Shown here: positions 1-34,489 of the stretch, piece by piece
How the letters are laid out: each line of letters begins with the position of its first letter
Position numbering within the stretch: the stretch's first letter is position 1
Assembly (NCBI GenBank): GCA_964374055.1
Contig: CAYJWZ010000002.1
Span: forward strand, 1 to 36,380
Length of the DNA stretch: 36,380 nucleotides
From: an uncultured Candidatus Saccharibacteria bacterium
GTDB taxonomy: Bacteria; Patescibacteriota; Andersenbacteria; UBA10190
Reading direction: 5' to 3'
The notes under the pieces: model-generated
What the model saw: only the letters and a program-made list of their open reading frames with translations
The model's database searches: none
Told to the model about the DNA's origin: nothing
Made by a program: the position numbers and the translations under genes

Positions 1-1767
1 TTGTAGGGGAATGACCGTGAGGAGAGGTTGGAGATATTCAGGTGCCGGTGGAACATAGATAACGTCATCAACATGGGCAGCGATGTCGCGATCGCCGGCG
101 GTAGCAATCGCAATCACCGGGCCGCCGCGCGCCTTTATTTCTTGCAGATTGCTCATTACTTTATCGTAAAGGGTACCACGCGGGTTGATGATGACTGAAG
201 GTGTATTTTTGTCAACAAGCGCGATTGGCCCATGCTTCATCTCGGCGGCGGGGTAGCCTTCAGCATGAATATAGCTGACTTCTTTTAATTTCAGGGCGCC
301 TTCCATGGCGATGGGGTAGTGATAGCCGCGGCCTAAATAGAGCATGGTTTGGGCAGCTTTATATTTAGTGGCCAGCTGTTTTATTTTTTCGTCGAGAGCC
401 AGTGTGGTTTTGATATGTCGGGGAAGCTCCAGTAATTCAGTGTACATTCTTGTGGCGGCGGCGGCACTGAGGTGGTGCAGCCGCCCGAGGTATAAAGTGA
501 GGAGCAGTAACGTAGTAACCTGGGCGGTAAAGGCCTTGGTAGAAGCAACACCTAGTTCCGGGCCGGCGTGTAAATAGATACCGCCATCAACTTCGCGGGC
601 AATGGAGCTGCCGACAACGTTAACCAGGCCAAGTGTAGGCAGGCCGCGGCGCTTGGCTTCGCGGATGGCGGCCAGTGTATCGGCCGTTTCGCCAGACTGG
701 CTAATGCAGGCGAGTAGGGTGTTGGTTTCAAACGGGGCGTGACGATAGCGCAGTTCACTGGCGTATTCGACTTCGACGGGCAGACCGGTTAGTTCTTCGA
801 TGAGATATTCACCAAGCAGGGCGGCATAATAACTGGTGCCGCAGGCGGTGAAGATGAGGCGTTTCGCAGAGCGCAGTTTATCTTCAGAAATATTTAGCCC
901 GCCAAACTTTGGCATGTTTTTTACTTCGTCCCACCGGCCCCGCAACACGTTTTGCACCGTTTCCGGCTGCTCGTACATTTCTTTTTGCATGTAGTGTTGG
1001 AAGTGGCCGAGGTCGGCTGCCATGGCGTGACTAATGGTCTCAATATGCGGGGTAACGTGACCGTTCGTGGCGTGATGAATAGTGAAGCCATCGCGGGTGA
1101 GCATGGCAATTTCGCTGTCGTTGAGGTAGACAACTTTTTTGGTGGTGGCAGGTAACCCGGCCTGTCCGGCAGGCAGGGCCGCGGTGTCGCTGGCCAGAAA
1201 ATGTTCATGATCGCCAATGCCAATCAGGAGCGGGCTGCCCAGGCGAGCGCCAATAAGCATGTCGGGGTGTTGGCGACTAACGATAGCCAGGCCGTAGGTG
1301 CCTTTGAGGAGGCGCAGGGTGGCCTCAATTGCTTTTAGTAGGTCATTATATTTTTTGAGATACAGGCCGAGTAATTGGGCAATTACTTCGGTATCAGTTT
1401 GGCTACGAAACGTCAGGCCTTTGGCTTCCAGCTTAGCTTTGATTTCGGCGTAGTTTTCGATGACGCCGTTATGGACAACGGCGATGGTGTTATCGCGATC
1501 GGTATGAGGGTGAGTATTGGCGACGGTGGGTGGGCCGTGGGTAGCCCAGCGGGTGTGAGCAATCCCGAGTGTGCCCGCGGCTGGAAAGTGGCTAACGGTT
1601 CGCTCAAGCGCTTCAACCCGGCCCACTCGTTTGCGTAACTCGAGTCGTCCTTCTTCCACCGTAACCAGGCCGGCACTGTCGTAGCCGCGGTATTCTAATT
1701 GTTTCAACCCAGCTACGAGGAAGGGCTGAGCCGGGCGTGAGCCAATATAGCCAACAATGCCGCACAT
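1..1767 (-). CDS. glmS: glutamine--fructose-6-phosphate aminotransferase (isomerizing); C-terminal ~20 codons cut off by the window edge
   Basis: Absent from the supplied ORF track because it has no stop in the window. Reverse-strand translation from ATG (1767-1765) gives MCGIVGYIGSRPAQPFLVAGLKQLEYRGYDSAG, then AHTRWATHG, VVHNGVIENY, FLASD, YMQKEMYEQPE, FTACGTSYYA, ISQSGETADT, GVASTKAF, MEGALKLKEVSYIHAEGYPAAEMKHGPIAL, and ends LLTVIPLQ at nt 1. The stretches I translated (1..1200 and 1441..1767) are open and in one phase. Confidence 0.95.
   Translation of the reverse strand, partial: MCGIVGYIGSRPAQPFLVAGLKQLEYRGYDSAGLVTVEEGRLELRKRVGRVEALERTVSHFPAAGTLGIAHTRWATHGPPTVANTHPHTDRDNTIAVVHNGVIENYAEIKAKLEAKGLTFRSQTDTEVIAQLLGLYLKKYNDLLKAIEATLRLLKGTYGLAIVSRQHPDMLIGARLGSPLLIGIGDHEHFLASDTAALPAGQAGLPATTKKVVYLNDSEIAMLTRDGFTIHHATNGHVTPHIETISHAMAADLGHFQHYMQKEMYEQPETVQNVLRGRWDEVKNMPKFGGLNISEDKLRSAKRLIFTACGTSYYAALLGEYLIEELTGLPVEVEYASELRYRHAPFETNTLLACISQSGETADTLAAIREAKRRGLPTLGLVNVVGSSIAREVDGGIYLHAGPELGVASTKAFTAQVTTLLLLTLYLGRLHHLSAAAATRMYTELLELPRHIKTTLALDEKIKQLATKYKAAQTMLYLGRGYHYPIAMEGALKLKEVSYIHAEGYPAAEMKHGPIALVDKNTPSVIINPRGTLYDKVMSNLQEIKARGGPVIAIATAGDRDIAAHVDDVIYVPPAPEYLQPLLTVIPLQ
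1156..1177. repeat. P1 palindrome copy inside glmS, in frame (LPAGQAG)
   Basis: Minus-strand reading ctg cct gcc gga cag gcc ggg. It sits between FLASDTAA and LPATTKKVVYL. Confidence 0.85.
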
Positions 1768-1802
1768 AGAGATAGCTTTTGAGTATACGGTGCGGTAGCA
1801 TA

Positions 1803-2813
1803 ATGTCTATGATTATTGTGACCGGGGGGGCGGGGTTGATTGGGAGTGCTTTGGTGTGGGCATTGAATAAGCGTGGCCGAACGGACTTGTTAGTTGTCGA
1901 TGATGTTGATCATCTAGAGAAAAAAAGAAATTTGCAGCCGCTCAAGTATGAGAAACAGGTTGGTATTAAGGAGTTTCGGGAAGAGTTGTTGGGAGGCCGA
2001 GTTAAGGCCGAAGCAATTCTGCACATGGGAGCGATCTCCTCGACATTTGAGAAAAATTGGGAGCGGTTGCAGGATTTAAATGTTTCGTATACGCAGGCTG
2101 TTATTCAGTGGGCGGTGAAAAATACTATCCGGTGTGTGTATGCCTCAAGCGCGGCAACGTATGGCGATGGGGTAAACGGTTATAGTGATGACCATGCTCT
2201 CTTTGATAAATTGCAACCGCTTAATTTGTATGGGAAATCGAAGTTAGCAGTTGATATGTGGGCACGTGATAATGGCTACCTAGAAGATGCAGTGGGGCTG
2301 CGCTATTTTAATGTGTTCGGGCCGAACGAGTATCACAAAGGTGAGATGCGCAGTGTGGTGACTAAGAAGTTTGACGAGTTACAACAGCACGGATTTATCG
2401 AATTATTTAAATCGAATGACCCGCAGTATGAAGACGGACAGCAGCCGCGCGATTTCGTGTATGTGAAAGATGCCGTGGAGGCTACACTCTTCTTTTTAGA
2501 TAAACCGAAACTGGGCGGCGTATATAACATTGGGACGGGGAAGGCCGAAACGTGGAACACAGTGGCACGGGCGATGTTCACGGCTGTGGGAAAACCAGCG
2601 GACATTCGCTATATTTCGTTGCCGGCGGCGTTGGCCCCACAGTATCAGAATTTTACGCAAGCCGATATTACTAAACTTACGGCGGCGGGATATAGCCGAC
2701 CTTTCATGCCGGTCGCCGCGGCCGTAACCGACTATATTCAACACTACTTGACCATTCGACAGGCTCAGGGTAAACCCACAGATAGACATGATCATAGACA
2801 TCTAGCAGAATAA
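1803..2813 (+). CDS. hldD: ADP-L-glycero-D-manno-heptose-6-epimerase-like SDR (HldD/RfaD family) with a repeat-derived C-terminal tail
   Basis: ORF 1779..2813. The Rossmann start [15 protein letters not shown] is at ATG 1803 (1809 is also possible). Colinear with E. coli HldD as I recall it: [73 protein letters not shown]. Confidence 0.8.
2750..2777 (+). repeat. P2 repeat copy at the 3' end of hldD, encodes (T)IRQAQGKP
   Basis: gaccattcgacaggctcagggtaaaccc; same reading frame as the asnB copy. Confidence 0.85.
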
Positions 2814-2817
2814 CTCT

Positions 2818-3684: not shown

Positions 3685-3705
3685 GGGGTGTGTTAGAGTA
3701 CATGC

Positions 3706-4035: not shown

Positions 4036-4095
4036 GCCAAGAAAAAACCGCCCGTTGCATTGACAGAAAGAGCGTTTTTAGGTAGCGTGGCGAGG

Positions 4096-4115
4096 CCTGC
4101 CTGCCGGCAGGCAAG
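4096..4115. repeat. P1 palindrome copy (19/20 match to CCTGCCTGCCGGCAGGCAGG), intergenic
   Basis: cctgcctgccggcaggcaag read directly. It lies 4 nt upstream of TATACT (4120-4125). Confidence 0.85.
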
Positions 4116-4119
4116 CTGT

Positions 4120-4125: not shown

Positions 4126-4131
4126 ACCCTT

Positions 4132-5073: not shown

Positions 5074-5076
5074 AAC

Positions 5077-6216: not shown

Positions 6217-7174
6217 AGTTTTAATTACCGGCGGGGCCGGTTTTATTGGTAGTAATTTGGCGCATGCGCTGGTGCAGCAGGGTGCGCAGGTGACGGTGTT
6301 AGATGCGTTGTTGCCACTGTATGGCGGCAACGAATTTAACTTAGAAGACATTCGCAGCCAGATTGAATTTGTTACGGGTGATATTCGGGATGAGGAGTTG
6401 GTGAAGAAATTAGTGACGGGAAAAGATTTGATTTATAACCTGGCGGCGCAGGTTAGTTATATTGATTCAAAAGATCAGCCGTTTTTGGATTTGGATATTA
6501 ATGGGCGGGGGCATTTACTCGTCTTGGAAGCGGTGCAACAGCTGGCGCCGGCGGCTAAAGTTTTCTTTTCTTCATCGCGACTGGTGTATGGCAAAATTCA
6601 AACCTTACCAGTCAAGGAAACGCACCCAACTACTCCCCTTTCGATGTACGGTATACATAAACTGCTGGGTGAAAAATATTATCGTTATTTTGCTGATACG
6701 TATAATCTACACACTGTGTCAATCCGTATTCCGAATCCGTATGGCCCGCGGCAGCAGATGAAGCACAGCAAATATTCGATTGTCGGCTGGTTTATCCGGC
6801 AGGCGATGGCGGGAAAGACCATCACTGTGTTTGGCGATGGCTCGCAAGAGCGGGACTATTTATATAGTGATGATATTGTTGATGCCTTATTGCAATTAAG
6901 TGACAAAGGCGAAAGGGGTGAGGTATATAACGTGGGCACGGATGAGCGGATTCGGTTTGTGGATATGGTGGATGAAGTGATTACAGCAGTTGGTTCTGGT
7001 AAAAAGGAACATGTGCCGTGGCCAGCTAACTATGAGAAAAATGAAACGGGCAACTATGTGGCCGATACCTCGAAGATTGAGTCGCTAACGGGTTGGAAGC
7101 CGCGTGTAAAGTTGGCGGATGGTATTGCCAAGACCGTGGAGTACTATAAAAAGTATCAGGCGCACTATTGGTAA
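6206..7174 (+). CDS. NAD-dependent epimerase/dehydratase (extended SDR)
   Basis: ORF 6101..7174. The Rossmann start MNAKVLITGGAGFIGSNL is at ATG 6206 and overlaps the upstream stop by 11 nt. Catalytic YxxxK is in SMYGIHKLLGE. Confidence 0.85.
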   Translation: MNAKVLITGGAGFIGSNLAHALVQQGAQVTVLDALLPLYGGNEFNLEDIRSQIEFVTGDIRDEELVKKLVTGKDLIYNLAAQVSYIDSKDQPFLDLDINGRGHLLVLEAVQQLAPAAKVFFSSSRLVYGKIQTLPVKETHPTTPLSMYGIHKLLGEKYYRYFADTYNLHTVSIRIPNPYGPRQQMKHSKYSIVGWFIRQAMAGKTITVFGDGSQERDYLYSDDIVDALLQLSDKGERGEVYNVGTDERIRFVDMVDEVITAVGSGKKEHVPWPANYEKNETGNYVADTSKIESLTGWKPRVKLADGIAKTVEYYKKYQAHYW

Positions 7175-7175
7175 T

Positions 7176-9548
7176 ATGTGGCTACGAAGCTGGTGGTGGG
7201 TGGCGGCGGGCGTCGTGCTGCTGGGATTACTACTGGTGCAGTTTGTGCGGGTCAACGAAAAAATATTTGAACAGGTGGCGTATACGGGGCATGCGGGGGA
7301 GCTCATTGGGGCGAAGATGGTTGGACAGACCTTTGTGGCCCCGGGAAATTATTTGTCGGGGGTGGCGGTGCAATTTGGGACGTATTCAGGCCGAAATAAT
7401 ACTCGGCCGGTGCAGTTTGGTTTGCGGGAATGGGGGAGTGCGGAGGATCTGCGAATAGCTAGGGTTATGCCGGCGGAGCTGGGCGATAATCAGCCGTATC
7501 GCTTTGATTTTGATCCAATAGCTGATTCAGCGGGCACAACCTATTTCTTTTATGTAACGTCTCCCGAAAGTACGCAGGGGAATGCAGTGACAGTCGGGAT
7601 TGATAACCGAGATCCGTATCCATCTGGCACAGCGTTTATTGGAGACGCAAAAGCAGTGGCGAAGTCGGGTAAGCCAGTGACCGATCTTGCATTCGCTTTG
7701 TATCAAGCGGTCCCGGTATCTGCGGCAGCTTGGCATTGGCTTATATCGTGGTGGCATAATTTCACCTTCGATCGGGCTTGGTTGCCAGGAGTATTGGGCG
7801 CGGTGGTGGTGACGCTGGTGTGGTGTTGGGCGGATCGTATTAAAACGCGCCGGGCTACTTTGGGTACGCTTGGTGTTTTATTTATCGCGGCATTGCTCTG
7901 GCGATGGTGGTATGCGCGGGAATTGCCGCTTACTAATGATGAAGGAAACTATTTGTATGATGCGTGGACATTGTTACATGGGAAGCTGGCCGGAGGCGAT
8001 GGTTATGTAAAGGCGCCATTGTTTATTGCGTGGATTGCGCTCTGGCAGTTGGTGGCCGGGCATACGGTGCTGGCGGGCCGAATGTCGTCGGTTGTTATTA
8101 GTTCACTGACGCTGTGGCCGGTGTATGTGTTAGCGGTATCTTTGTGGAATCGCCGGACCGGTTTAGTAGCGGCTGCTTTGTGGGCAGTTACTGGTGTGGC
8201 CGTGGTGTTTGGAATTTATGTACATACCCAGCCAGTAGCTCTGTTTTTCGCGGTGGCTGGAATTGCCTTATTAGCTCACACAGTGCGGCACAATACGAGA
8301 GCATGGCGCTTCGTGGCGGCTGGTGTGTTACTTGGACTAGGCGTAGCCTCGCGTAAAAGTGTGCTGGCGGTTGGCTTGGTGCCGCTCATTATGCTGCTGA
8401 TACCTCAATTCCACCCGTCGGGTGGAATTGAGGGTTATACGCGGAAGGTAAAGCAATTGGCGTGGGTTGGGTTGGGGTTTGTTGTGGTTATCGCATTGTT
8501 TTTGCTGGCGGCGCATAGCATGTACGGGACGATGGGTGTGCGGGAAGCGATTGGTATCGGGTCGGCGGAAGATAGTATTAATACTGACCCGGCCCAAGCC
8601 GAACAAGTACGGGCGTACTCGATTCGGGGGATGACGCCATTTTTCCGGGAATCATTGCCGCTTATTTTGTTATCGCTGATTGGTTTGGGTGTGGCTGGTG
8701 AACGTTGGGCGCGGCGCTGGGTGCAACCGGTGGTCGCAAAACTTGCTTGGCTGTTACCAGCCGCTATCTTCTACTGGGCGTGGTGGTTTTTCTTTGAGTA
8801 TGAAGGCGCGGTTTTTCATCGGTTTGGAATTCTCGAATTATGGTATATATTTCCAGCGGTTTTGTTGCTGCTTGCGGTATGGCCCTTCGACCCGCCTATG
8901 CCAAGGCTACGGCGGGCAGGCTCACTTCTAGGAACGTATGTGGTGGTTCCGCTGTGGGTTTTTGGCTTGGTAATTTTTTACACTAACTGGATTAAATTTC
9001 ACGCCAATTACATTGCCGAATTTATTCCGCCGCTGGTAGTGTTGTCGGCCTATGGGGCGGTTGCACTGCGTGATCGTTTGCCACGGTATCTATGTGAAGC
9101 AGTTTGGCTGGTCGTGATAGGGGCGATCGTCGTAACGGGGTATGTGACGTTTGTTTTTGAGCATACCGGAACGTTTCAACAGGAGGCGGTGGCGGAGGCA
9201 GCCGCCTGGGCTAAAGAAAATATTCCAGCTGACCAGGCTATTTTCACCGGGGCGGCAGTTGTACCGTACGTTTCCGGTCAGCATGTGGCACTCGACATTG
9301 CCCATCCCCGCTGGTATGCCTATGAATTTACCCGGAAAGACCCAGTGCGTTTAAACACGTTCTTACCATCAGCTGAAAAAATGCTTGAAGCCTTTCGTAA
9401 AAGCGAATGGGTGCTGATGGAGCAGCAAACTGGCTTTTCCTTCTTAATGGAATACAGCGAAATTGAAAAATCCATTAATGAAGATTTTCAAGCGGTGCAT
9501 GTGGTAGAGAACGGCTCGAACACACTGACGTTCTATCGGCGTCAATAG
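7176..9548 (+). CDS. GT-C fold glycosyltransferase (PMT/ArnT, PMT_2-like) with an N-terminal extracytoplasmic module
   Basis: ORF 7119..9548. ATG 7176 follows the upstream TAA (7172-7174) and gives the anchor MWLRSWWWVAAGVVLLGLLLV. A soluble module of about 110 aa (7320..7646) comes next, then many TM helices with the first-loop motif LTNDEGNYLYDAW. Confidence 0.75.
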   Translation: MWLRSWWWVAAGVVLLGLLLVQFVRVNEKIFEQVAYTGHAGELIGAKMVGQTFVAPGNYLSGVAVQFGTYSGRNNTRPVQFGLREWGSAEDLRIARVMPAELGDNQPYRFDFDPIADSAGTTYFFYVTSPESTQGNAVTVGIDNRDPYPSGTAFIGDAKAVAKSGKPVTDLAFALYQAVPVSAAAWHWLISWWHNFTFDRAWLPGVLGAVVVTLVWCWADRIKTRRATLGTLGVLFIAALLWRWWYARELPLTNDEGNYLYDAWTLLHGKLAGGDGYVKAPLFIAWIALWQLVAGHTVLAGRMSSVVISSLTLWPVYVLAVSLWNRRTGLVAAALWAVTGVAVVFGIYVHTQPVALFFAVAGIALLAHTVRHNTRAWRFVAAGVLLGLGVASRKSVLAVGLVPLIMLLIPQFHPSGGIEGYTRKVKQLAWVGLGFVVVIALFLLAAHSMYGTMGVREAIGIGSAEDSINTDPAQAEQVRAYSIRGMTPFFRESLPLILLSLIGLGVAGERWARRWVQPVVAKLAWLLPAAIFYWAWWFFFEYEGAVFHRFGILELWYIFPAVLLLLAVWPFDPPMPRLRRAGSLLGTYVVVPLWVFGLVIFYTNWIKFHANYIAEFIPPLVVLSAYGAVALRDRLPRYLCEAVWLVVIGAIVVTGYVTFVFEHTGTFQQEAVAEAAAWAKENIPADQAIFTGAAVVPYVSGQHVALDIAHPRWYAYEFTRKDPVRLNTFLPSAEKMLEAFRKSEWVLMEQQTGFSFLMEYSEIEKSINEDFQAVHVVENGSNTLTFYRRQ
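8403..8433. repeat. P3 hairpin: perfect 14-bp stem with 3-nt loop, in frame inside a CDS (encodes PQFHPSGGIEG)
   Basis: cctcaattccaccc-gtc-gggtggaattgagg read directly. It shares the core ATTCCACCC-N3-GGGTGGAAT with the hairpin at 35720..35750. Confidence 0.9.
8891..8916. repeat. P4 repeat: CCGCC-N14-GGCGG inverted repeat inside a CDS
   Basis: cccgcc-tatgccaaggctac-ggcggg. It has the same architecture as 19145..19170, with 9/14 loop identity. Confidence 0.6.
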
Positions 9549-9550
9549 GT

Positions 9551-10321
9551 TTACTTTATAAACCGGGCAAACTTACTACCTTTAAAGGAAACAGACTTCC
9601 AGCCAGTTTGAGCAGCGATCTTACGCATTGCTTGTTTACTATAAATGCTGACGTGGGTTTTTGGGTCTCTTAAGTAAAACCATTTATCCTGGTGGCGCTG
9701 ATATTCGGGGTCTTCCAGCCGATGTGTCTGGGCTAGTAGCAAGCCGCCTGGTTTCAAAATTCGGTTCAGTTCCTTAAATATTTCCAGGGGATTGGTGATG
9801 TGCTCGAATGTTTCAATGGCCATTATGCCGTCGAAATAGTCTGGGGGTAGCTTTGTTTCCATGAGGGAAGTGCGAATAATGGCCGGGTGACGTATAGGGC
9901 TGTAGGGATCTAGGCCATAAATATCTAACTGGTCCCGTTTTCTCAATTCCAGTAATGAAGTGCCATGGCCGCAGCCAAAATCGAGTAAGCGGCCAGTGCG
10001 CCGTAGAACGCCGGTATGTGTCAGACTGGTATAGCCCGGGATACGCTTGCACAGTTGGTGAATAGTGCGGGCATGCCAACGCAACGGTGAGTACATGAGT
10101 TCAAGTATTTCCCACCCAATTTTATACATGTACTCTCTCTGGCCGGCCGGCCAGAGATTGTCACGGGCCTCATCATTAATTGCCGTTTGGTCATTATTGG
10201 GGTGTTCTTCCCAATAAAAGTTCTGTAAAAATTGGCAGGTGGAGCACAGGAAGAACGTAACCCCGTTGATAGTGTGGCGGGGCTGAACTTGGCTGCCGCA
10301 GATTTTGCAGGTGGGATTCAC
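9551..10321 (-). CDS. class I SAM-dependent methyltransferase with an N-terminal CxxC...CxxC zinc ribbon
   Basis: GTG start. MNPTCKICGS...FLCSTCQF, SAM motif I LLDFGCGHGTSLLEL, and the post-I region AIETFEHITNP...LKPGGLLL. Confidence 0.8.
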   Translation of the reverse strand: MNPTCKICGSQVQPRHTINGVTFFLCSTCQFLQNFYWEEHPNNDQTAINDEARDNLWPAGQREYMYKIGWEILELMYSPLRWHARTIHQLCKRIPGYTSLTHTGVLRRTGRLLDFGCGHGTSLLELRKRDQLDIYGLDPYSPIRHPAIIRTSLMETKLPPDYFDGIMAIETFEHITNPLEIFKELNRILKPGGLLLAQTHRLEDPEYQRHQDKWFYLRDPKTHVSIYSKQAMRKIAAQTGWKSVSFKGSKFARFIK

Positions 10322-16566: not shown

Positions 16567-17988
16567 ATGTCGAAACGAGTAGTTGTCTGGAGTTTATTCG
16601 TTTTATTTACGCTAACCCAAGTGGCGTATTTGCATCGGGTGCCGGGTTTGATGGGCGATGAGGCCTCCGAGGGAGAAAATGTGTATGAACTGTGGTCGGG
16701 CCAAAAGGCGTGGTTGGAAGGCGAGCGGTCGTATATTGGGCCGGCGATTGATTATGTGCGCATGCCGTTCTTTTTGGTAATTAAACATCCAGTGTTGGCG
16801 TTGCGCAGCGTGACTTTGTTGGCAGCGATTATCTCCTTTTGGTTAGCGATTGTTGTTTTTCGGCGCCTATTCGGCGAACAGGCCGGGTTGCTGGCGGCTA
16901 CAGCTGTACTCTTCTCGCCTGTTTTCATGCTGGAGCAACGGATGGCGTGGGCGATTTCACTCTCGCCATTTTTTGCCTTGCTGACCTTGTATTTTATGCA
17001 ACACCCTCGCTGGTGGGCCCCCGCATTCGCGGGGCTCGCCAGCGGGCTCGGCTTGAGTAATCATATTTTATTTTTGCCAGTGGTGGCTGGTCTTATGGGC
17101 GGAGGGTTGTTTTATTGGTTGAGTGGCCCCGTAAAATCCCGCCGCTGGCGGGATCACGGGGCGACCGCGCTGCTTTGCGCGGTCGGTTTTGCAGCGGCGT
17201 TCGCAACACAGGCTTGGCAGTTGTGGACATCGCCGGCCGGCGATCAAGGTGAGCCGGGCGCTGTGGCTGAATTATTTTGGGATCGTCTACAAGGTCTGCC
17301 GCAATTGATGCCTTTGGTTGTTTCCGGTTCATCGTATGTGGCGCGGTATACGGGCGTGGAGTTTAGTTTGAGTTGGCAATATGGAATTACGGCGCTTGTT
17401 TTGGGTTTAGTGATCGTGGCCGTACTATGGGGGACTAGGGCGGCGCGGCTGTGGTTTTTAGCGACGGTGATCCATCTTAGTGTGTTATTAGTTGTGATTG
17501 ATCGGTTCTCACTGCGCTATTTTGTGCCTACGATGTTGGCTGTGTGGGTGTTGGTCGGGGTAGGGGTGGGAATACTGTGGGAAAAATTTGGCCCCGTAAA
17601 ACTTCGTCACGGGGCTGCGCTGGCGCTGGCTGGCGTTTTATCGCTTTGGGTGGCCTTGGTTGTGTTAATACCATTTTTGCAGACAGGTGGGAGCACGAAT
17701 GATTTTTCGTTGGCCAATCGGACGGATAGTGCCTCGGCGCTGGTTGATGTGCGGCCATTGGTAACCTGTTTGCGCGCCCGCCTGCCGGACGGGCAGGGAC
17801 AGGGTACGGTTACGTCCGAGAGTGTGCATATTTTTAATCGCTTATGGTTTTTGCGCCACTACGAGTCGGAACTTCAGGTTGTGCGGGAGGGTGAGGATTC
17901 GCAGTGGTTGGTGAATTATCGCCTTAGTGACCAACCGGCTGGTGATTTATGCCCGCAACTTACGTACTTTCGGGTAGAGAAACGCTAG
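16567..17988 (+). CDS. GT-C-like polytopic membrane glycosyltransferase (distant PMT_2/ArnT-like)
   Basis: 473 aa with about 11 hydrophobic helices and an acidic first-loop motif PGLMGDEASEGENVY. Weaker family signal than the paralog group. Confidence 0.6.
   Translation: MSKRVVVWSLFVLFTLTQVAYLHRVPGLMGDEASEGENVYELWSGQKAWLEGERSYIGPAIDYVRMPFFLVIKHPVLALRSVTLLAAIISFWLAIVVFRRLFGEQAGLLAATAVLFSPVFMLEQRMAWAISLSPFFALLTLYFMQHPRWWAPAFAGLASGLGLSNHILFLPVVAGLMGGGLFYWLSGPVKSRRWRDHGATALLCAVGFAAAFATQAWQLWTSPAGDQGEPGAVAELFWDRLQGLPQLMPLVVSGSSYVARYTGVEFSLSWQYGITALVLGLVIVAVLWGTRAARLWFLATVIHLSVLLVVIDRFSLRYFVPTMLAVWVLVGVGVGILWEKFGPVKLRHGAALALAGVLSLWVALVVLIPFLQTGGSTNDFSLANRTDSASALVDVRPLVTCLRARLPDGQGQGTVTSESVHIFNRLWFLRHYESELQVVREGEDSQWLVNYRLSDQPAGDLCPQLTYFRVEKR
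17781..17804. repeat. decayed P1-like copy in frame (LPDGQGQG)
   Basis: cctgccggacgggcagggacaggg. It resembles the P1 half-sites but is degenerate. Confidence 0.4.
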
Positions 17989-19975: not shown

Positions 19976-21928
19976 ATGACGTGGTGGCAGAAGTATCGAT
20001 GGGACATTATGTGGGCGGCGATTATTTTTGTGGCGGCAGCCGTGCCACGACTATTAGATTTGGGAATCTTTTTAACGGCCGATGAGAAGAATTGGATGAT
20101 GCGCGGCTATGAATTTGCGCGGGCGTTTAAGGATGGCCGGTTCAATGACATGCTGCAAACGACGCATCCGGGCGTAACGGTGCTGTGGCTTACCGGCATA
20201 GTTATTTACGCCACACTGTTTTTAAAGCATACGTTGTTTACTAACGACAGTTTACCGATATTTATTTACTCGACACAATTTGCCGTGGCGTTGTTAAACA
20301 CGGCACTCGTGCCGGTGATTTATTTGCTGTTACAGCGCTTGTTTAAAAACCGAGCTATTTCCGTAACCGCGGCGCTGCTGATCGCTTGGAACCCGTGGCT
20401 GGTTGGCTATTCGCGGGTGGTGCACATTGATGCGGTGGTGACCGGCTTCATGTTGGCAGCGGCGCTAAGCTTATTAATTTGGGCACAGGAGGGCTACCCA
20501 CGGCGCTGGCTGGTTTTTTCGGCAGTACTGGCCGCGCTGGCAGTTTTAAGTAAAGCGCCGGCGATATTTTTAATTCCCTATTTTTGGTTAGTTGTACTGG
20601 TGTTTGGTGTTCAACGCTGGCGCCGGCGATTACTGGAGTTTGTTTGGTGGCTGTTGATTATAATTGTTTTGTTTGTGTTGCTATGGCCAGCGATGCTGTG
20701 GGTGCCGGATAAAACTGGTAACGCTCGGGTGTTGAAGCGCGATTACATGGTGGCCGCCACCACACCGCATGATATCAGTGAAAGTTTTAGTACTAACCTG
20801 TGGCACTACCCAGCGACACTGATTACGCGGACGGAGCCGGCGGTACTGCTTCTTTGTTTGGTGCTGGTTGGTTTGTTAATTAGACCCCTACCCCGGCGCT
20901 TCGCGCCGGTACTCCCCCTTCGTAAGGGGGAGAAAAAGATCGAATGGCTACTAGCGGCATATGTTTTTTTCTTTATTGTCATGATGACCATCGGGGCAAA
21001 GAAGGGCGATCGGTATATTTTGCCGATTGCGCCGGTGATGGATATAGTAGCGGTGTTGGGATTAGCCGCGTTGCTCCGCGGCCGAAAATTTATTATAGCA
21101 GCGAGTATTTTAGTTCTCGTTAGCGCGGGCACAGTTATTTACCATCATCCTTATGCTTTAGCATATAGTAACCCATTTTTTCCCAATAATTTGAGCCAAG
21201 AGTTGGGGTGGGGTGAGGGTTTGGAGCAGGTAGGAGCGTGGCTTAACCAACAGGCAGGGAAAAGTAAAGTGGCGTCGTGGTATCCGGACGAGCTGGGGTA
21301 TTTTACAGAGGCGGCTGTGGTACACATCAATGCCCATGAACAGCCGGCCGTGCGCTATATCGTTTTATATCACAATATGTTTGGGCGCCCGGTCGAGCAT
21401 CCGGCTAATAATTTTATTGATGAATATTATAAGAAGTGGAAACCGGTGTTTGTGGCTCACGTTGCTCAAAAAGAATACGCCTGGGTGTATGAGAAGCCGG
21501 TGTTTGATAAGAATGTTGGTGAACTGACATCGGGCCGGGTAGTTAGGCAGACCATTTCAGTACGCGCGCCGCAGTTTATCGGGCTGGAGGTGTTAGCGGC
21601 CACCTATACCGGGCGGGCCACAGAAGGCGAATTGGTCGTGTCGATGAAAGACCTACATGAGTGGCGAGTGCCAGTAAGTAAGCTTAACGACACCGGTTGG
21701 ACACAGCTACTTTTACCAAGGCCGGTTGAGCTCGCCGGACAGGAGTTGACAGTCACTTTTTCAGGTGCGGGAACGAACTTCGGCAATGCACCAACTATTC
21801 GTTCGGGAACGTCTGGATTAGCTATCCGGCAGCTTTTTTCCCGGCCGGCCGGTCAGGCAGGGGTGAACGGCGTGATCGCGAACGAGTACGAGACCAAACT
21901 ATTGGAACAATCAGCAGGCCGAGAGTAA
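19976..21928 (+). CDS. GT-C fold glycosyltransferase (PMT_2/ArnT-like), paralog group 1, with a C-terminal module
   Basis: LLDLGIFLTADEKNWMMRG, HPGVTVLWL, KKGDRYILP, PFFPNNLSQELGWGEGLEQVGAWLN, YIVLYHNM, YAWVYE. The C-terminal module is at about 21539..21838. The last 29 codons start with a P1-like repeat and overlap the convergent gene. Confidence 0.8.
   Translation: MTWWQKYRWDIMWAAIIFVAAAVPRLLDLGIFLTADEKNWMMRGYEFARAFKDGRFNDMLQTTHPGVTVLWLTGIVIYATLFLKHTLFTNDSLPIFIYSTQFAVALLNTALVPVIYLLLQRLFKNRAISVTAALLIAWNPWLVGYSRVVHIDAVVTGFMLAAALSLLIWAQEGYPRRWLVFSAVLAALAVLSKAPAIFLIPYFWLVVLVFGVQRWRRRLLEFVWWLLIIIVLFVLLWPAMLWVPDKTGNARVLKRDYMVAATTPHDISESFSTNLWHYPATLITRTEPAVLLLCLVLVGLLIRPLPRRFAPVLPLRKGEKKIEWLLAAYVFFFIVMMTIGAKKGDRYILPIAPVMDIVAVLGLAALLRGRKFIIAASILVLVSAGTVIYHHPYALAYSNPFFPNNLSQELGWGEGLEQVGAWLNQQAGKSKVASWYPDELGYFTEAAVVHINAHEQPAVRYIVLYHNMFGRPVEHPANNFIDEYYKKWKPVFVAHVAQKEYAWVYEKPVFDKNVGELTSGRVVRQTISVRAPQFIGLEVLAATYTGRATEGELVVSMKDLHEWRVPVSKLNDTGWTQLLLPRPVELAGQELTVTFSGAGTNFGNAPTIRSGTSGLAIRQLFSRPAGQAGVNGVIANEYETKLLEQSAGRE
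20893..20909. repeat. perfect hairpin CCGGCGC-TTC-GCGCCGG in frame in a CDS
   Basis: Read directly. It is part of the extra loop segment PRRFAPVLPLRKGEKK, which is absent from the two paralogs. Confidence 0.8.
20912..20932. repeat. perfect hairpin CTCCCCC-TTCGTAA-GGGGGAG in frame in a CDS
   Basis: Read directly. It lies 2 nt after the previous hairpin and encodes LPLRKGE. Confidence 0.8.
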
Positions 21929-24728
21929 TCGGCAGGCTCACTCCGGTCAGCAGCTTAGCTTGCCTGATAGCGGGGGAGTCGTAGCGAAACGAGACGGTGT
22001 GTTGACCGGCGCCGACACGGGCGGCTTTAAAGACAGAATTGGCCACGTAATAGGGGGCCGGTTGATTATCAACAAACGTGCGCCACTGCGGGGTGGTGCT
22101 ATCGGTTACCACCAGCCAGGCTTCGCTCGGCGTGGTGACGGCGACCTCAACTTCAGTATCCTGATAGCGGGTGACGTTCACGGTAGCGCTCAATAGTTTT
22201 GTGTTACGGGCGGGGAGATCGTCGGGTAACTGATTGCCGCTGATGTAGACCACCTGTTTTGGATCATAGGCCGGGTCAGCGATGGCGACACGGGTTTCAT
22301 CGGCCGCGGCGTTGGGGATAGCGTTTCGGACCAGATAGGCCTTGGGATAGGCTTGCGGGTTGTGATAGAGGCGAAAGGAACCGTTGCTGGTGGTTTGTTC
22401 GCCGATGAGGGTGAAGCCGAGACTGGGCAAGCGGTCCTCGGTTTCTTTGGAAACAAACTGGGTGAGGTGGGTAATACTGGCACTGTCGAATAAGGCGCGG
22501 TGGCGTTGTAAAAAGTGACGGCCGTCGCCATCGATTAGATTGTCCTGATCATTTTGAAAGAAATCCTCAATGAATTCACGATACGGTTTAATGGAGAGAG
22601 CACCAATCCAGCGGGCACTGGAGGCGCCGGCGATGACATTGAGATGGCGACTGAGCGTACCGACTTCCGGATTGAGCCCGGCATCGGTGGCGGTACTACC
22701 TTCTTGCATAACGAGACGGACGTCTTTGCGCGAACGGGCCAGTTGCTCGGCTGTCGGGTTGGGTACGCGGATCAAATAGGCGCGGTTGTCGCCGGTGGCT
22801 GGTATGAGGTAGGGGTTAATGCGACTGTGCGGGGCGCTTAGGGCTATGACGTAGTGGCGGTTAGTTTCGAGGACCTGGTTAAAGCAGACGGGCGTATAGC
22901 CTTGATGATTAACGTTTGAGGGGCGTACGATGACATGCTCGCGGGCGGCGCCAGTTATTGTTTCTTTAAGGCTGACGGTAATGGCCTCATCGCTGGCGAT
23001 TTCAGCCGCATACAGCATGATACGGAGACAGTTGACGGAAGGTATAGTTGGGGTAAGAGGCTGCATAATAGTGAAATCGCGGGTGATGGCGTCAGCCGAG
23101 CGGATGTGTTTAATAAGCGCTTCAGTGTAAATCATGTCACGGCCGTAGAGGCGCGGCGGCACACCTGCCTGTCCGGTAGGCAGGCGTTCGGGCGAAATGG
23201 CAGTTCGTAACTGGTCAATCCATGTTGGTTCAGCCAGGGCAGTGACTCGGGGAATCAGAGGATTATAATTCCAGCCAAAAGCAAGCAGCGTAAGAGCGCT
23301 GAGGCTGACCAATCCGTAGGTGGCGACTGCGCGGACACGTGAAAAGCGCTGTAAAAAGAGATAGAGCGGAAAAACAAACAGAGCGATAAGACCTAAGATC
23401 CATTCGTAATTATAGGTGTTAATCAGGTGGTCAAGCTGTGCCAGGTAACGCGGCTCAACTTGCAGAGTGATAAAAAATGGGGCGAAGAGTGCCGCCACGC
23501 AAATCGGGCTTAAGGCCAGTGCCAGCAACCGTTGCCAGCGGGGGGTGGTGGAGAGAGAGCGGAGATCATCGAGGCCGACGGCGGCCAGGAGGCTGATGCC
23601 AACATTGAAAAAGAAGACAAAACGACCGGGCGTGGTGAGTGTGCTCAAAATTCTTTGTTCAACAAGGTAACGATAGAGTGGGGAGTATTGGCCGAGAGCA
23701 AAAACAAACGTCACTACCAGTAAACTTATTCCGAAGAGGCGCAGGGAGCGCTGGCGGCGCGTTTGCCAGGTGAGGAGCGCGCTACTGGCCAGCAGGAGCG
23801 GTAGTACGCCGGTGTAGGCCGCTAATTCCTGAAAGTTTTTGGCACCCCAGTAATTGGTTTTATCACCAAAAAATGTCGGCAGAATAAGCGTGATGGCATG
23901 ACTTGGCGGATAGCTGAACTCAAATAATTCAATGGGCGATAGATCCTCGCCCCGCTCGGTCAACGGCTGGAACTCCCGCAGCGGTAGAATCGCAAAAGCC
24001 GAAAGACCGAGGAAAAGCAGGGCAGCCAGCAAGACAAGGCTGGTTGGTTTGAGTAGTTTCATTTTACGCCGGGGTAACAGAATTCCCCAGCGGAATAAAC
24101 CGTAGAGAGTAGCGATGATGAGGGTGTAGAGCACAATTTGGGGTTGGCCACCGAGGGCGGTCGCGGCAGCTACGAGGGCCACCGCGGCGCTGCGGGGAAG
24201 AGTCGGCTTGATAAGAAGTGCTTCAATAGCCAGTAGCAACAGGGGGAGCAGTGTGCTGGCGGTATAAAAGTTAACGTGATTCAAGTGGCCGATCATGAAG
24301 CCGGAGAAAGCAAACACGATGGCACCCAGCGCCGCCGCCGCGGGCGAAAGCCGGCGGTAGCGCAGGAAGGCAAACATGCTGACTATGCCAACCAGGAAAT
24401 AAGCGATGACGGAGATCTGCAGGAGCGTGATGGGGTGAATACTGAGGGCGCGCAAGAGGAGGTGGAGCGGGGTGAAGAAGCCGAGTTGGCCCCAAGCAAT
24501 GACGGGCTGACCAAAACCGAGGAGATTGCTCCAGACCGGCAGGGTGAAGTTGGCCTGGGCAGCGGCGTAGATCACCTCAAGCGGATAATAGATAATTTTT
24601 AAGTCGTCGAGGAAATAAAAGTATTGCCCGCTGATGGTGCGAATAAAAAAGATGAACCAGGTCATGAGAACGAGGCCGAGGCCAAGAGCATGCGGCTTTA
24701 ACTGCTTAGTTATTTGTCGGATTGACAT
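21822..24728 (-). CDS. YfhO-like GT-C polytopic membrane protein (968 aa) with a large extracytoplasmic region
   Basis: First loop YFYFLDDLKIIYYPLE...VWSNLLGFGQP, about 13 N-terminal TM helices, a roughly 440-aa soluble region, a final TM VSLPITLGLLIVPIVW and a basic tail. It overlaps the upstream small gene by 19 nt and the convergent 19976 gene by 107 nt. Confidence 0.7.
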   Translation of the reverse strand: MSIRQITKQLKPHALGLGLVLMTWFIFFIRTISGQYFYFLDDLKIIYYPLEVIYAAAQANFTLPVWSNLLGFGQPVIAWGQLGFFTPLHLLLRALSIHPITLLQISVIAYFLVGIVSMFAFLRYRRLSPAAAALGAIVFAFSGFMIGHLNHVNFYTASTLLPLLLLAIEALLIKPTLPRSAAVALVAAATALGGQPQIVLYTLIIATLYGLFRWGILLPRRKMKLLKPTSLVLLAALLFLGLSAFAILPLREFQPLTERGEDLSPIELFEFSYPPSHAITLILPTFFGDKTNYWGAKNFQELAAYTGVLPLLLASSALLTWQTRRQRSLRLFGISLLVVTFVFALGQYSPLYRYLVEQRILSTLTTPGRFVFFFNVGISLLAAVGLDDLRSLSTTPRWQRLLALALSPICVAALFAPFFITLQVEPRYLAQLDHLINTYNYEWILGLIALFVFPLYLFLQRFSRVRAVATYGLVSLSALTLLAFGWNYNPLIPRVTALAEPTWIDQLRTAISPERLPTGQAGVPPRLYGRDMIYTEALIKHIRSADAITRDFTIMQPLTPTIPSVNCLRIMLYAAEIASDEAITVSLKETITGAAREHVIVRPSNVNHQGYTPVCFNQVLETNRHYVIALSAPHSRINPYLIPATGDNRAYLIRVPNPTAEQLARSRKDVRLVMQEGSTATDAGLNPEVGTLSRHLNVIAGASSARWIGALSIKPYREFIEDFFQNDQDNLIDGDGRHFLQRHRALFDSASITHLTQFVSKETEDRLPSLGFTLIGEQTTSNGSFRLYHNPQAYPKAYLVRNAIPNAAADETRVAIADPAYDPKQVVYISGNQLPDDLPARNTKLLSATVNVTRYQDTEVEVAVTTPSEAWLVVTDSTTPQWRTFVDNQPAPYYVANSVFKAARVGAGQHTVSFRYDSPAIRQAKLLTGVSLPITLGLLIVPIVWSRTRSRSRRSPLPDRPAGKKAAG
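21841..21863. repeat. decayed P1-like copy (PAGQAG) in the convergent overlap zone
   Basis: ccggccggccggtcaggcagggg. Plus-frame codons are ccg gcc ggt cag gca ggg. Confidence 0.55.
23163..23183. repeat. P1 palindrome copy inside a minus-strand CDS, in frame (LPTGQAG)
   Basis: cctgcctgtccggtaggcagg. Minus-strand codons are ctg cct acc gga cag gca ggt (aa 516-522). Confidence 0.9.
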
Positions 24729-32261: not shown

Positions 32262-33324
32262 AACACGAGCGCTGGCGGCGCAGGGTGGGGGCGTGCGGCG
32301 GTATGTGGAGCACATACTGCACGAGCTTACACGGCACCCTGAGCACACAGTTATGCAACTTAGTTTGTCGAACGAGCTGTTCGTCGCGCCGTGGCTCAAG
32401 TGGTATGTGCCGCGGGTAGTAAAAAAACTGCAACCGGACGTCGTACATTTTACAAAAGCGGACGTCCCGCGGCGAAAAGTAGTGCCGACGGTGGTGACGA
32501 TCTACGATGTTATTCCTTTGTTGTTTCCTGAAGGTCAAAAGACGTTACAGCGCTGGTATTGGCCAGGCGCTTTGGCTCGGGCGGCACGCTTTAGCGATGC
32601 GATTATAACAATTTCAGGGGCCAGTAAACGTGATATTGTTGAGAAGTTACAAGTAGCGCCGGAGAAAATTACGGTGACGCCGTTGGGGGTTGACGCTGCC
32701 CGTTTTCGCCCTCAAGGTGTCAGGAACTCTGGCGATAAAGTTCCTGACACCCTCACTCCTTACATTCTTTTTGTCGGGACGTTGGAACCGAGAAAGAATG
32801 TCCCGCTGTTGATCCGGGCGTTTGCGCGGATAGCGCGAGATATTTCTCATCGCTTGGTCATTGTAGGTAAACGTGATAACGATTTTGGTGCAGTGCGAAC
32901 GGCTTTACGGGAAAGCGGCTTGGGCAATCGGATTGAGCTTAAAGACTTTGTGTCGAGTGAGGAGTTATCACACTTATATGCCGGCGCTGATTTATTTGTC
33001 TGGCCATCGGTGTACGAAGGCTGGGGGTTGCCCCCGTTGGAAGCGTTGGCCAGTGGGGTGCCGACTATTGTGAGTGATGGAGGTTCTTTGCCGGAAGTAG
33101 TTGGTGAAGCCGGTGTCATCGTGTCATTTACTGAACCAGGCATACAGAAGCGGATGAGTGATGCGGTGTTCGAAGTAAAACTGGCGGAGGCAATGCGGGC
33201 GGTCTTAACTGACTCGGCGCGGCAAGAAAAGTTACGAGCAGCTGGGCCACAGCAAGCGGCGAAATTTACTTGGGCCGGAGTGGTGGAAAAGACACTGGAA
33301 GTATATAAGAAAGTAGCGATATGA
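32245..33324 (+). CDS. GT4 family glycosyltransferase
   Basis: ORF 32155..33324. ATG 32245 gives MRIALETRALAAQGGGVRRY. ILFVGTLEPRKN, PSVYEGWGLPPLEALASGVPTIVSDGGSLPEVVG. Confidence 0.85.
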   Translation: MRIALETRALAAQGGGVRRYVEHILHELTRHPEHTVMQLSLSNELFVAPWLKWYVPRVVKKLQPDVVHFTKADVPRRKVVPTVVTIYDVIPLLFPEGQKTLQRWYWPGALARAARFSDAIITISGASKRDIVEKLQVAPEKITVTPLGVDAARFRPQGVRNSGDKVPDTLTPYILFVGTLEPRKNVPLLIRAFARIARDISHRLVIVGKRDNDFGAVRTALRESGLGNRIELKDFVSSEELSHLYAGADLFVWPSVYEGWGLPPLEALASGVPTIVSDGGSLPEVVGEAGVIVSFTEPGIQKRMSDAVFEVKLAEAMRAVLTDSARQEKLRAAGPQQAAKFTWAGVVEKTLEVYKKVAI

Positions 33325-34439
33325 AAATTGCTTATTTGACAAATGCTGGGGCAAGCAGTGGAGTGGGGCACTATGCGGCAGAGCTTAAGCAGCGTTTACT
33401 AGCATTTCCTGACCTTGCGTTCTCTGACTTTATACTTCCAAGTACTAGTGGAAAGTGGCCATGGCAGAAAAAGACGTTTGGTTGGATCCGGCAAGGTCGT
33501 AAGCTAAAACGTGCGTTACGGCGGGGTGATTTTGATGTCGTGCATGCGACGAATCAAACACTGAGCTTTATAGTGTCGCGTCGGGTTCCAGCGGTGGTAA
33601 CAGTGCATGATTTGATTGAATTATTAGAGCCGCAGCAGGGGTTAAGCGGCTGGGCGGCGCGGTATTTGTATAGCGGAATCAAGCGAGCTAACCATCTGAT
33701 TGCCGTGTCTGAGTATACCAAGCGTAGTATTATCGAAGTTTACGGGATTTCGCCGGACAAGGTTTCTGTTATTCATAACGGGGTGAGCCAAATTTTTCAT
33801 CCGATTGATGGTTTTCGGAATACGATTGGGTATAAAACATTGCAGCAAGAAATAAAATTACTGGCTGGCGCGGAAGTCGTTTTATATGTTGGCTCGGATC
33901 ATCCGCGGAAGAATCTGGCGACGGCTTTGCGGGCATTTTCCGAGTTACACCATAGTCACCCGGAGGTGATCTTCCTGAAAGTAGGGGAGGCGGGGATTGC
34001 GGCTGGTCGCGCCGAAACATTATGTGTAATCGACGAGTTAGGTTTACGTGAGCGAGTACGTTTTATCGGAGCAGTTTCTTTGGAGCGCTTGAATGAATTA
34101 TATAACCTGGCCAGCGCACTGATTTTTCCGTCACGTTTTGAGGGTTTTGGGTTGCCGCCCTTACAGGCTATGGCCGCCGGTACGCCGGTTATTGCGGCCA
34201 GCACGACGTCGATCCCGGAAGTGGTCGGGGAAGCAGGGCTATTGCATAGCCCGGATGATGTGCATGGTTTTGCCACGAGCTTACAGCGGGTATTGGATGA
34301 TAAAAGCCTGGCACAGAGTTTGCGGCAACACGGGTTTGAACGAGCTAAACTTTTTTCGTGGGAAAAAGCGGCCGAACAGACATTGGCAGTGTATCGATCT
34401 ATTTGTCCCCTCGCCCCTAACGGGGAGAGGGCGGGGTGA
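33321..34439 (+). CDS. GT4 family glycosyltransferase; last ~11 codons read into a repeat hairpin
   Basis: ATGA overlap with the upstream stop. VLYVGSDHPRKN, PSRFEGFGLPPLQAMAAGTPVIAASTTSIPEVVG. The tail is ICPLAPNGERAG. Confidence 0.85.
   Translation: MKIAYLTNAGASSGVGHYAAELKQRLLAFPDLAFSDFILPSTSGKWPWQKKTFGWIRQGRKLKRALRRGDFDVVHATNQTLSFIVSRRVPAVVTVHDLIELLEPQQGLSGWAARYLYSGIKRANHLIAVSEYTKRSIIEVYGISPDKVSVIHNGVSQIFHPIDGFRNTIGYKTLQQEIKLLAGAEVVLYVGSDHPRKNLATALRAFSELHHSHPEVIFLKVGEAGIAAGRAETLCVIDELGLRERVRFIGAVSLERLNELYNLASALIFPSRFEGFGLPPLQAMAAGTPVIAASTTSIPEVVGEAGLLHSPDDVHGFATSLQRVLDDKSLAQSLRQHGFERAKLFSWEKAAEQTLAVYRSICPLAPNGERAG
34408..34431. repeat. REP-like hairpin (10-bp stem with 1 mismatch, loop TAAC) spanning the 3' end of the GT4 gene
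   Basis: ccctcgcccc-taac-ggggagaggg read directly. Confidence 0.6.
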
Positions 34440-34467
34440 GGGGTGTTATGGCTGACAATAACCCTCA
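34437..34467. repeat. REP-like imperfect hairpin
   Basis: tgaggg(gtg)ttat-ggctgaca-ataaccctca: 6+4 bp with a 3-nt bulge. Confidence 0.4.
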
Positions 34468-34469
34468 TC

Positions 34470-34489
34470 CCTGCCTGCCGGCAGGCAGG
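34470..34489. repeat. P1 palindrome, perfect 20-nt copy, intergenic
   Basis: cctgcctgccggcaggcagg equals its own reverse complement. Confidence 0.95.

Follow-up and report, generated by a model that had tools for sequence, protein, structure and literature searches.

A 20-nt palindrome inserted in and between bacterial genes is best described as an orphan REP-like mobile hairpin

How does one short palindrome come to lie both between the genes of a bacterial contig and, in frame, inside several of its conserved genes? This question is raised by contig CAYJWZ010000002.1 of an uncultured Candidatus Saccharibacteria bacterium, which in its entirety (36,380 nt) forms the window analysed here. The repeat occurs in two forms, together referred to as P: P20 (CCTGCCTGCCGGCAGGCAGG) is a 20-nt perfect palindrome, and P21 (CCTGCCTGCCGGACAGGCAGG) is a 21-nt derivative with one additional central base. 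P is inserted DNA that is polymorphic among relatives, specific in sequence and common to several phyla and their phages.

Searching the window for P20 with up to three mismatches returned two sites only, namely an exact copy at 34470-34489, located between two GT4 glycosyltransferase genes (33321-34439 and 34530-35711) and directly followed by a second hairpin (34494-34517), and a copy with one mismatch (…GGCAAG) at 4096-4115, 16 nt upstream of the ATG of a GT2 glycosyltransferase gene (position 4132). Dinucleotide shuffles of the window (n = 100), a check that had been set beforehand, yielded 0.00 copies. The initial annotation of this DNA had described a 20-nt palindrome scattered over the window, which holds for these two sites, including the 19/20 match just before the GT2 start, whereas the copies inside genes proved to be the 21-nt variant, recognised by an edit-distance search. 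Thus, both P20 copies are outside genes, while three P21 copies are inside genes, together with two decayed 21-nt relics. The exact P21 copy (14025-14045, plus strand) is in an asparagine-synthase-family amidotransferase gene (asnB, 13228-15135), just before the VPVGVFLSGGLDS PP-loop strand. The other two have one mismatch each and are on the minus strand, at 1157-1177 (…CAGGCCGG) in glmS (1-1767, the gene exceeding the window) and at 23164-23184 (CCTGCCTACC…) in the gene of a 968-aa YfhO-like membrane protein (21822-24728); these are slightly shifted best placements of copies that had been noticed before. As had been read from the letters, all three use a common phase whatever the strand of the host gene, C|CTG CCT RCC GGA CAG GCN GG|N, in sense orientation, giving LPAGQAG in the AsnB-family protein and in GlmS and LPTGQAG in the membrane protein. 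Convergence at the protein level is ruled out by the use of identical codons in three unrelated proteins. Direct reading confirms that the 20-mer has no stop codon in any frame; of the two lengths, only 21 nt is divisible by three. Both decayed copies are genuine as well, each being an exact seven-codon insertion specific to the window: GCCCGCCTGCCGGACGGGCAG (17776-17796, plus strand) encodes ARLPDGQ within a membrane-protein open reading frame (ORF, 16567-17988) and is compared with two orthologues, and CTGCCTGACCGGCCGGCCGGG (21840-21860, minus strand) encodes LPDRPAG near the C-terminus of the 968-aa protein and is compared with one. As single-stranded DNA, P forms an 8-bp stem with a 4- or 5-nt loop (-8.0 kcal/mol for P20, as for the exact copy at 34470, and -8.9 kcal/mol for P21), while the mismatched window copies fold more weakly (-4.8 to -6.1 kcal/mol).

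Are the seven residues ordinary coding sequence or an addition to it? The AsnB-family protein and GlmS were each compared with their best 120 homologues. The solved structures 7ylz and 1ct9 show a gap of exactly seven residues opposite LPAGQAG of the AsnB-family protein, and the same exact gap is present in 118 of the 120 homologues. The remaining two are the window protein and the relative closest to it (P0002, 78 % identity), in which LPAGKAG stands at the insert site. For GlmS, the E. coli protein is gapped at this position and the seven residues are absent from 120/120 homologues, including those of 85, 84, 82 and 72 % identity, while a 68 %-identical orthologue of the YfhO-like protein has an 11-residue gap spanning the P21 copy. 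The earlier suggestion that the residues are an extra insertion in conserved enzymes is borne out by these gaps, and the only one of these AsnB-family homologues with LPAGQAG-like residues besides the window protein, P0002, has a decayed copy of the palindrome. A location in loops agrees with the predicted structures, since both inserts modelled with AlphaFold2 are in low-confidence coil. In the AsnB-family protein (mean predicted local distance difference test score, pLDDT, 94.1) the insert is part of a coil (264-276) between a helix (245-263) and a strand (277-280), and the insert blocks have pLDDT values of 70 and 81 compared to 97-98 nearby. In GlmS (mean pLDDT 83.0) the insert (198-204) is placed in coil between two strands (189-192 and 211-214), with a pLDDT of 60 for the insert block compared to 88-89 nearby.

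The DNA of relatives reveals the corresponding empty sites. At asnB, two relatives are empty and read GCY GAT|GTG CCG, while the window is filled and reads GA[CCTGCCTGCCGGACAGGCAGG]T GTG, so that the insert comprises 21 nt within an Asp codon and there is no duplication. The contig that encodes P0002 (L120) carries a decayed copy, CCTGCCTGCCGGCAAGGCGGG, at the same asnB site, and among the relatives compared it is the only one to share this copy; therefore, the asnB insertion is old and inherited. At glmS, relatives L276 and L277 have empty sites and the copy is present in the window only, and this insertion is the younger of the two. Upstream of the GT2 gene the window reads GAGG[P]CTGTTATACT, while L277 reads GAGACTG[P]TTATACT, with an exact P20 3 nt further downstream, and the site is empty in two other relatives (L276 and L122). 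The copies 3 nt apart represent either independent hits at a hotspot or a loss followed by re-insertion. Copies are gained and lost among close relatives, and the presence/absence polymorphism that the initial annotation had proposed to look for is seen at the asnB, glmS and GT2-upstream sites. The gaps in orthologues together with the clean empty DNA sites indicate that P is repeat DNA inserted in frame and not ordinary coding sequence.

Insertion of P is clean and usually not accompanied by a target-site duplication. This is the case for all sites with a known empty allele, and an exact flanking direct repeat of 5-16 nt is missing at 180 of 187 sites. The flanks of P sites are unrelated to each other, and a logo of 140 unique P20 sites displays a weak A at position -1 only (41 %) and no conserved tetranucleotide or tag. 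At locus L005 one unit of a tandem repeat is filled by P, such that an internal pair of empty and filled sites is clean to the base. A phage contig (L159, IMGVR_UViG_3300037242_000417) contains a family of hairpins, CCCATCCTTG-loop-CAAGGGTGGG, with loops that are plain, filled by P or hold another palindrome, TCCGCCGCGGCGGA, providing a natural series of empty and filled sites that is likewise clean to the base. P is often found in the loop of another hairpin or adjoins one, and several copies (L049, L023 and L026) are nested within a second P, either at position 11|12 or at the mirror-image position 9|10. The arms are constant and the centre is variable; in viral contigs the centres are CCGG (39), CG (13), CCGGA (11), CCGGT (9) and CCGGC (7), counts that are biased by the earlier scan.

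Several loci show P in a repetitive or tRNA-like context. The sequence TCCGCCAGCTGGCGGA, nearly identical to a palindrome of the window (TCTCTGGCCGGCCGGCCAGAGA, 10136-10157), adjoins P in loci of other phyla (L014 and L021), and a tandem array with a period of 21 nt (L183, 3935-4124) has the P arm GGCAGGCAGG in each unit. tRNA-like sequence surrounds P at three viral positions (L163 2284, L125 8616 and L177 515) and in five genomic loci (L019, L044, L035, L103 and L118): in the two related phages L163 and L125 it occupies the variable loop of a tRNA-Met-like gene, and elsewhere it is on the 3' side of the D-loop (a D-loop in viral contig L177, D-arm sequence in the five genomic loci). Insertion into functional tRNA genes was rejected for the genomic loci, where ARAGORN finds no intact tRNA after deletion of P and fragments or partial duplicates are likelier.

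How far does the palindrome extend beyond this lineage? A scan of 185,579 GTDB species genomes for P20 and P21 identified at least 119 stretches in about ten phyla. According to the record titles of the matches listed, Bacteroidota plus Ignavibacteria account for 43 stretches and Patescibacteria for about 33, followed by Omnitrophota (9), Planctomycetota/PVC (8), uncultured "Gammaproteobacteria" (8), Deltaproteobacteria-type, Bdellovibrionales and Thermodesulfobacteriota (6), Nitrospirota/Thermodesulfovibrionales (4), Chloroflexota (2), Elusimicrobia (1) and unclassified records (5), while Bacillota, Alphaproteobacteria, Cyanobacteria and Archaea appear in none of these titles. Cultured carriers are found among Bacteroidota, namely Winogradskyella echinorum, Flagellimonas yonaguniensis, Longitalea luteola, Aquiflexum lacus and Agriterribacter humi, and the G+C content of P-bearing loci ranges from 0.31 to 0.72. 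In IMG/VR, 65 P stretches are present in viral contigs, one of which (29.5 kb, encoding a terminase and an adaptor protein) contains up to six copies; exact P was not found in GenBank phages (n = 50,697) or PLSDB plasmids (n = 72,556). In IMG/VR, two control palindromes in which the arms had been shuffled, while their composition and the centre were kept, matched 1 and 0 stretches compared to the 65 of P. P is therefore a specific sequence and not part of a background of G+C-rich hairpins; these viral-contig controls argue against the possibility that any G+C-rich palindrome would match about 100 times in 596 Gb. Together with the 0 copies in shuffled sequence, these controls rule out a chance origin. 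The presence of an identical 20-mer across many phyla and phages implies horizontal spread. The element is real, as initially proposed, but it is not private to this genome. A literature search returned no match to the 20-mer or to the peptides PACRQAG, LPAGRQ, CLPAGR, FDKLRAN and RPELVEG, and keyword searches gave nothing specific, in agreement with the initial statement that no description of this particular element is known, though elements of this kind are.

Within genes, copies appear to be filtered by reading frame. Among the matches listed in species genomes, 11 of 19 P21 sites are in open frames of at least 600 nt, compared to 21 of 103 P20 sites (odds ratio 5.4, p = 0.0015), and 82 of the 103 20-nt copies are in short open spans. 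The LP(A/V/G)(G/R)QAG phase is used by 9 of the 12 P21 copies in long open frames. Furthermore, copies at the same site in related high-G+C phages differ only at the central base (T or G), which, if the LP..QAG phase applies there, is the third position of a Gly codon. These observations would fit a scheme in which P20 is the mobile form and persists in non-coding DNA. A 20-nt insertion into a gene would shift the frame, so that rarer frame-restoring forms survive, chiefly the 21-nt form with its extra loop base, which would fall at the wobble position of a Gly codon. Surviving coding copies would then be mainly those in the Leu-Pro-Ala-Gly-Gln-Ala-Gly phase, which adds small, flexible residues, at loops between secondary-structure elements.

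What could move such a sequence? We consider it fairly probable that P is a mobile element of the REP (repetitive extragenic palindrome) type, ultra-short, self-complementary and non-coding, which is copied as a unit, filtered by frame in genes and probably moved as a hairpin by HUH/Y1 chemistry. A single-stranded DNA hairpin may be the form in which P is mobilised in trans, the enzyme being of the HUH/Y1 type (RAYT/IS200-like) or one of similar function. To our knowledge, no other well-characterised bacterial chemistry moves hairpins without duplicating the target, and HUH/Y1 is proposed here because it fits the clean junctions and the link to hairpins.

A candidate for such an enzyme is encoded on the contig itself. 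The last ORF (35765-36283) encodes a relative of the REP-associated tyrosine transposases (RAYTs), which matches Pfam PF01797 (Y1_Tnp) with 28.9 bits (cut-off 23) and NCBIfam NF047646 (REP_Tyr_transpos) with 59.7 bits, under the equivalog cut-off of 80, and weakly matches E. coli TnpA-REP (4er8). HLH (HUH motif) and RYIHLNP (Tyr motif) are both conserved, while a TAG at the position of the conserved Tyr in W..SSY.EY shortens the ORF, whose homologues have 223 residues. A 33-nt palindrome, ACCATGATTCCACCCGAAGGGTGGAATCATGGT (35719-35751), precedes the ORF, and the whole region (35719-36283) looks like half a REPtron. The putative Y1 fold with HUH motif and catalytic Tyr, and the REP hairpins flanking its homologues, support assignment to the RAYTs. 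In 80 metagenome loci with RAYT homologues the classical REPtron layout is seen, with ..CACC(C/T)-loop-(G/A)GGTG.. hairpins on both sides of the gene, and the sequences of these hairpins vary from locus to locus. The possibility that P is the cognate REP of the RAYT on this contig was rejected, since the gene and its homologues are bordered by a different hairpin. It follows that the RAYT explains a second palindrome family of the window, not P. To this family belongs a 31-nt palindrome, CCTCAATTCCACCCGTCGGGTGGAATTGAGG (8403-8433), located in frame inside a PMT_2 gene (7119-9548) at a position where three orthologues have a seven-residue gap, and the RAYT-linked family thus behaves like P.

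Several observations weigh against movement of P by HUH/Y1 enzymes of the REP/RAYT kind. P-like copies are present in 6 of the 80 RAYT-homologue loci, never as the bordering hairpin, and a hidden Markov model built from the RAYT clade detects a Y1 homologue in only 2 of about 390 loci, most of them P-bearing. An all-against-all BLAST of the ORFs of 184 loci returned only related high-G+C phages and no shared enzyme. The flanks of the 140 sites do not contain the GTAG or CGTC tag of classical REPs, which co-vary with their RAYT and are lineage-specific, whereas P is invariant across phyla, a pattern that the REP/RAYT model does not predict. Some 20-nt copies are within long open frames, encoding LPAGRQ, where the true insertion may comprise 21 or 27 nt. 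Finally, about 10 % of sites are flanked by direct repeats of 7 bp (exact at 5 sites and with one mismatch at 7, compared to an expectation of 0.06 and 0.39, respectively), which Y1 chemistry does not yield. Exact flanking repeats peak sharply at this length (five are 7 bp, one is 8 bp and one is 14 bp long), and the sites concerned are often within heptamer tandem arrays (L136, L053, L100, L077 and L162); L160 and L124, as well as L097, L129, L154 and L186, belong to the same set. For the 7-bp repeats we see no reading that also covers the clean insertions elsewhere. The missing tag, the lack of a linked gene, the invariance across phyla and the 7-bp repeats all fit the classical REP/RAYT picture badly.

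A different, less probable but possible reading is that P, perhaps with sibling motifs, represents a new class of minimal selfish DNA, a 20-bp hairpin that passes horizontally between phyla and phages and remodels protein loops. Its mover would be an unrecognised conserved machinery, or many HUH enzymes would recognise its structure only. If this were true, P would be the smallest known mobile element with a host range across phyla.

Three further explanations each account for part of the data and fail elsewhere. The first, which appears unlikely, is spread without a dedicated enzyme, by polymerase template switching or ectopic templated repair, such that a nascent end resembling a P arm anneals to another, often single-stranded P, copies the palindrome and returns. 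In line with this, the empty glmS site of L276 already reads CTGCCTGCC, identical to the P arm, the empty GT2-upstream site of the same relative ends in GGCAGG, and GTGCCG follows both the asnB and the membrane-protein copies. The nesting of several P copies in P at 11|12 or 9|10 and the variation of the centre (CCGG, CG, CCGGN) between constant arms point in the same direction. Over about 160 sites, however, P-arm k-mers are not enriched in the flanks (5-mers at 13.2 % adjacent to P compared to 11.9 % 60 nt away), so that a general preference for P-like targets is unsupported despite the suggestive L276 and GT2-upstream cases in the lineage of the window. Moreover, template switching gives no reason why the phyla should have one identical 20-mer in common and not local palindromes, palindromes with shuffled arms are all but absent, and most insertions are base-exact at both junctions.

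Improbable, too, is the second of these, according to which P is the minimal remnant of a cut-and-paste (DDE-type) transposon, with two 8- to 10-bp terminal inverted repeats (TIRs) head to head, either as a TIR-only element or as an excision footprint, that makes 7-bp target duplications. Such an origin would account for the sharp peak of flanking repeats at 7 bp, far over expectation, for the heptamer tandem arrays around several copies, which could be accumulated footprints, and for constant arms around a variable central junction. It is contradicted by the about 90 % of exact copies that have no duplication, and by the absence of a duplication from every site with a known empty allele. In addition, a search of about 3.5 Mb of loci revealed no longer element bounded by both arms (CCTGCCTGCC…GGCAGGCAGG) with a target duplication, and no transposase gene recurs near P.

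Equally little probability is given to the third, that P is a selected functional site, such as a protein-binding site, an RNA or terminator hairpin or an uptake-type signal, which is spread by recombination and the coding copies of which are by-products. Uptake sequences of other bacteria do occur as inverted pairs and favour particular reading frames. The strict conservation of the sequence across phyla, the mostly intergenic position of 20-nt copies, often right behind a stop codon as at 34470, and the frequent location in or beside other hairpins would suit a functional site. Against this, the copies in the window decay, with mismatches that break the stem (from -8.9 to -4.8/-6.1 kcal/mol) and are not accompanied by compensatory changes, and in close relatives copies have been lost or are missing and have not been replaced. 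There is no T run behind the hairpin at 34470, an Rfam search of the whole window matched 0 families, and the coding copies differ from their orthologues by a change of length and not by point-mutational drift.

An artefact of assembly, library or linker, or coincidentally similar coding sequence, can be dismissed with near certainty, since, although P resembles a synthetic self-complementary linker with its central GCCGGC site and is carried mostly by metagenome-assembled genomes, the asnB copy is found again, with 3 substitutions (a divergence about as high as in the flanks), in an assembly obtained independently from a different sample, where it occupies the identical codon, the central base is not the same in same-site copies of related phages, enrichment in ORFs and in one reading phase is seen for the 21-nt form, P is present in cultured isolates, and some P-bearing assemblies, judging from record titles, presumably stem from long-read projects.

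P is not the only small insertion in the window. Perfect hairpins with a stem of at least 8 bp number 16 compared to 4.35 expected, and comparison with three relatives identified 19 window-specific insertions, the commonest length being seven codons. The sequence TTCGACARGCTCAGGGTAAA occurs twice (2755-2774 and 13439-13458), in frame in two unrelated genes, where it encodes IRQAQ and LRQAQG; both copies are missing from orthologues. Its core is found in at least 120 IMG/VR stretches with unrelated flanks (consensus CCCTTCGACARGCTCAGGGYGARCGG), the chance expectation of a 16-mer not being negligible. Near the N-terminus of the asnB product, CCCGCCAGCTGGCGGG (13262-13277) is within a window-specific insert of 4-6 residues, and GGCCCCGTAAAA is common to two window-specific insertions in one membrane-protein ORF, at 17119-17142 (LSGPVKSR) and 17584-17604 (KFGPVKL). 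Further G+C-rich palindromes are located within ORF 16567-17988 (ATCCCGCCGCTGGCGGGAT, 17136-17154, and ATCGCCGGCCGGCGAT, 17229-17244) and in a methyltransferase gene (TCTCTGGCCGGCCGGCCAGAGA, 10136-10157, encoding LWPAGQR).

The genes of the contig form a cell-envelope glycosylation cluster with glmS, GT2 and GT4 transferases, PMT_2 and YfhO-like membrane proteins and sugar epimerases, and the named homologues of the encoded proteins are annotated as Patescibacteria, several of them as Candidatus Andersenbacteria. GC skew is strongly and uniformly positive along all 36 kb (about +0.19 on the plus strand), and the plus strand holds most of the genes.

If the description of P as a mobile hairpin is upheld, it defines a mobile unit that is very small and has a very wide range of hosts. 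P would then also offer a natural experiment on the tolerance of protein loops to insertion, including those of the essential GlmS and an AsnB-family amidotransferase, and a simple marker by which horizontal exchange between uncultured lineages can be followed. Since P is easily traced and synthesised, it becomes possible to test what moves orphan REPs. A practical consequence is that insertions of this type lead to false "lineage-specific" indels and to low-complexity peptides (LPAGQAG, PACRQAG and LRQAQG) when metagenome-assembled genomes are annotated.

How does P compare with known systems? The G+C-rich clusters of fungal mitochondria are very short palindromes that are optional between strains, intergenic and occasionally in frame in genes, with a mechanism that is unknown; they differ from P in being organellar, in their A+T-rich context, in their length of 30-50 bp and in forming lineage-specific families. 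Rickettsia palindromic elements (RPEs) are about 100-150 bp long and were described from Rickettsia. P shares with them the in-frame insertion into conserved genes, its absence from orthologues and structurally tolerant positions, RPEs likewise being palindromic repeats that add a tolerated peptide, with longer RPE-1 inserts also mentioned (PMC3733652). It is set apart from the RPE families by its length of 20-21 nt, or seven residues, and by its occurrence in many phyla. Miniature inverted-repeat transposable elements (MITEs) are, like P, non-autonomous, with inverted-repeat ends, and mobilised in trans, but they comprise 70-300 bp with 15-30-bp TIRs and regular target duplications (PMC3733652), whereas P has 20 bp, about 90 % of its copies lack a duplication and no parent element is present in about 3.5 Mb, so that P does not qualify as a MITE. 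CGTC-tagged REPs form a super-family without a dedicated transposase, some families of which are found in several species and inside genes (PMC3733652); they occur mainly in Alphaproteobacteria, whereas P has no CGTC tag and another taxonomic range.

Closest to P are the REPs of the REP/RAYT systems (REPtrons), which are also short G+C-rich hairpins (20-40 bp), sometimes nested or clustered, inserted without target duplication and, as appears to hold for P, mostly intergenic near gene ends, and a RAYT-type gene is present in the same contig as P. In accordance with a REP, P is a palindrome that forms a stable hairpin and inserts without target duplication (with about 10 % exceptions). The window contains 5 clear copies and 2 relics in 36 kb. 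It departs from a REP in having no terminal GTAG/CGTC tetranucleotide and in flanking none of the RAYT genes examined; it is a perfect palindrome at the lower size limit, and is identical over about ten phyla and phages, whereas the hairpins flanking RAYT homologues differ from locus to locus. REP-type repeats are usually taken as lineage-specific, extragenic and tied to a resident RAYT, whereas P is common to several phyla and phages, enters genes and lacks a linked transposase. Since both intragenic REPs and REP families that lack a dedicated transposase have been reported (PMC3733652), the kind of element is already known, while the range and minimal size of P are, as far as we found, undescribed. 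The comparison with REPs and RPEs drawn in the initial annotation is apt, since P is repeat DNA inserted in frame, and P is best described as an orphan REP-like mobile hairpin.

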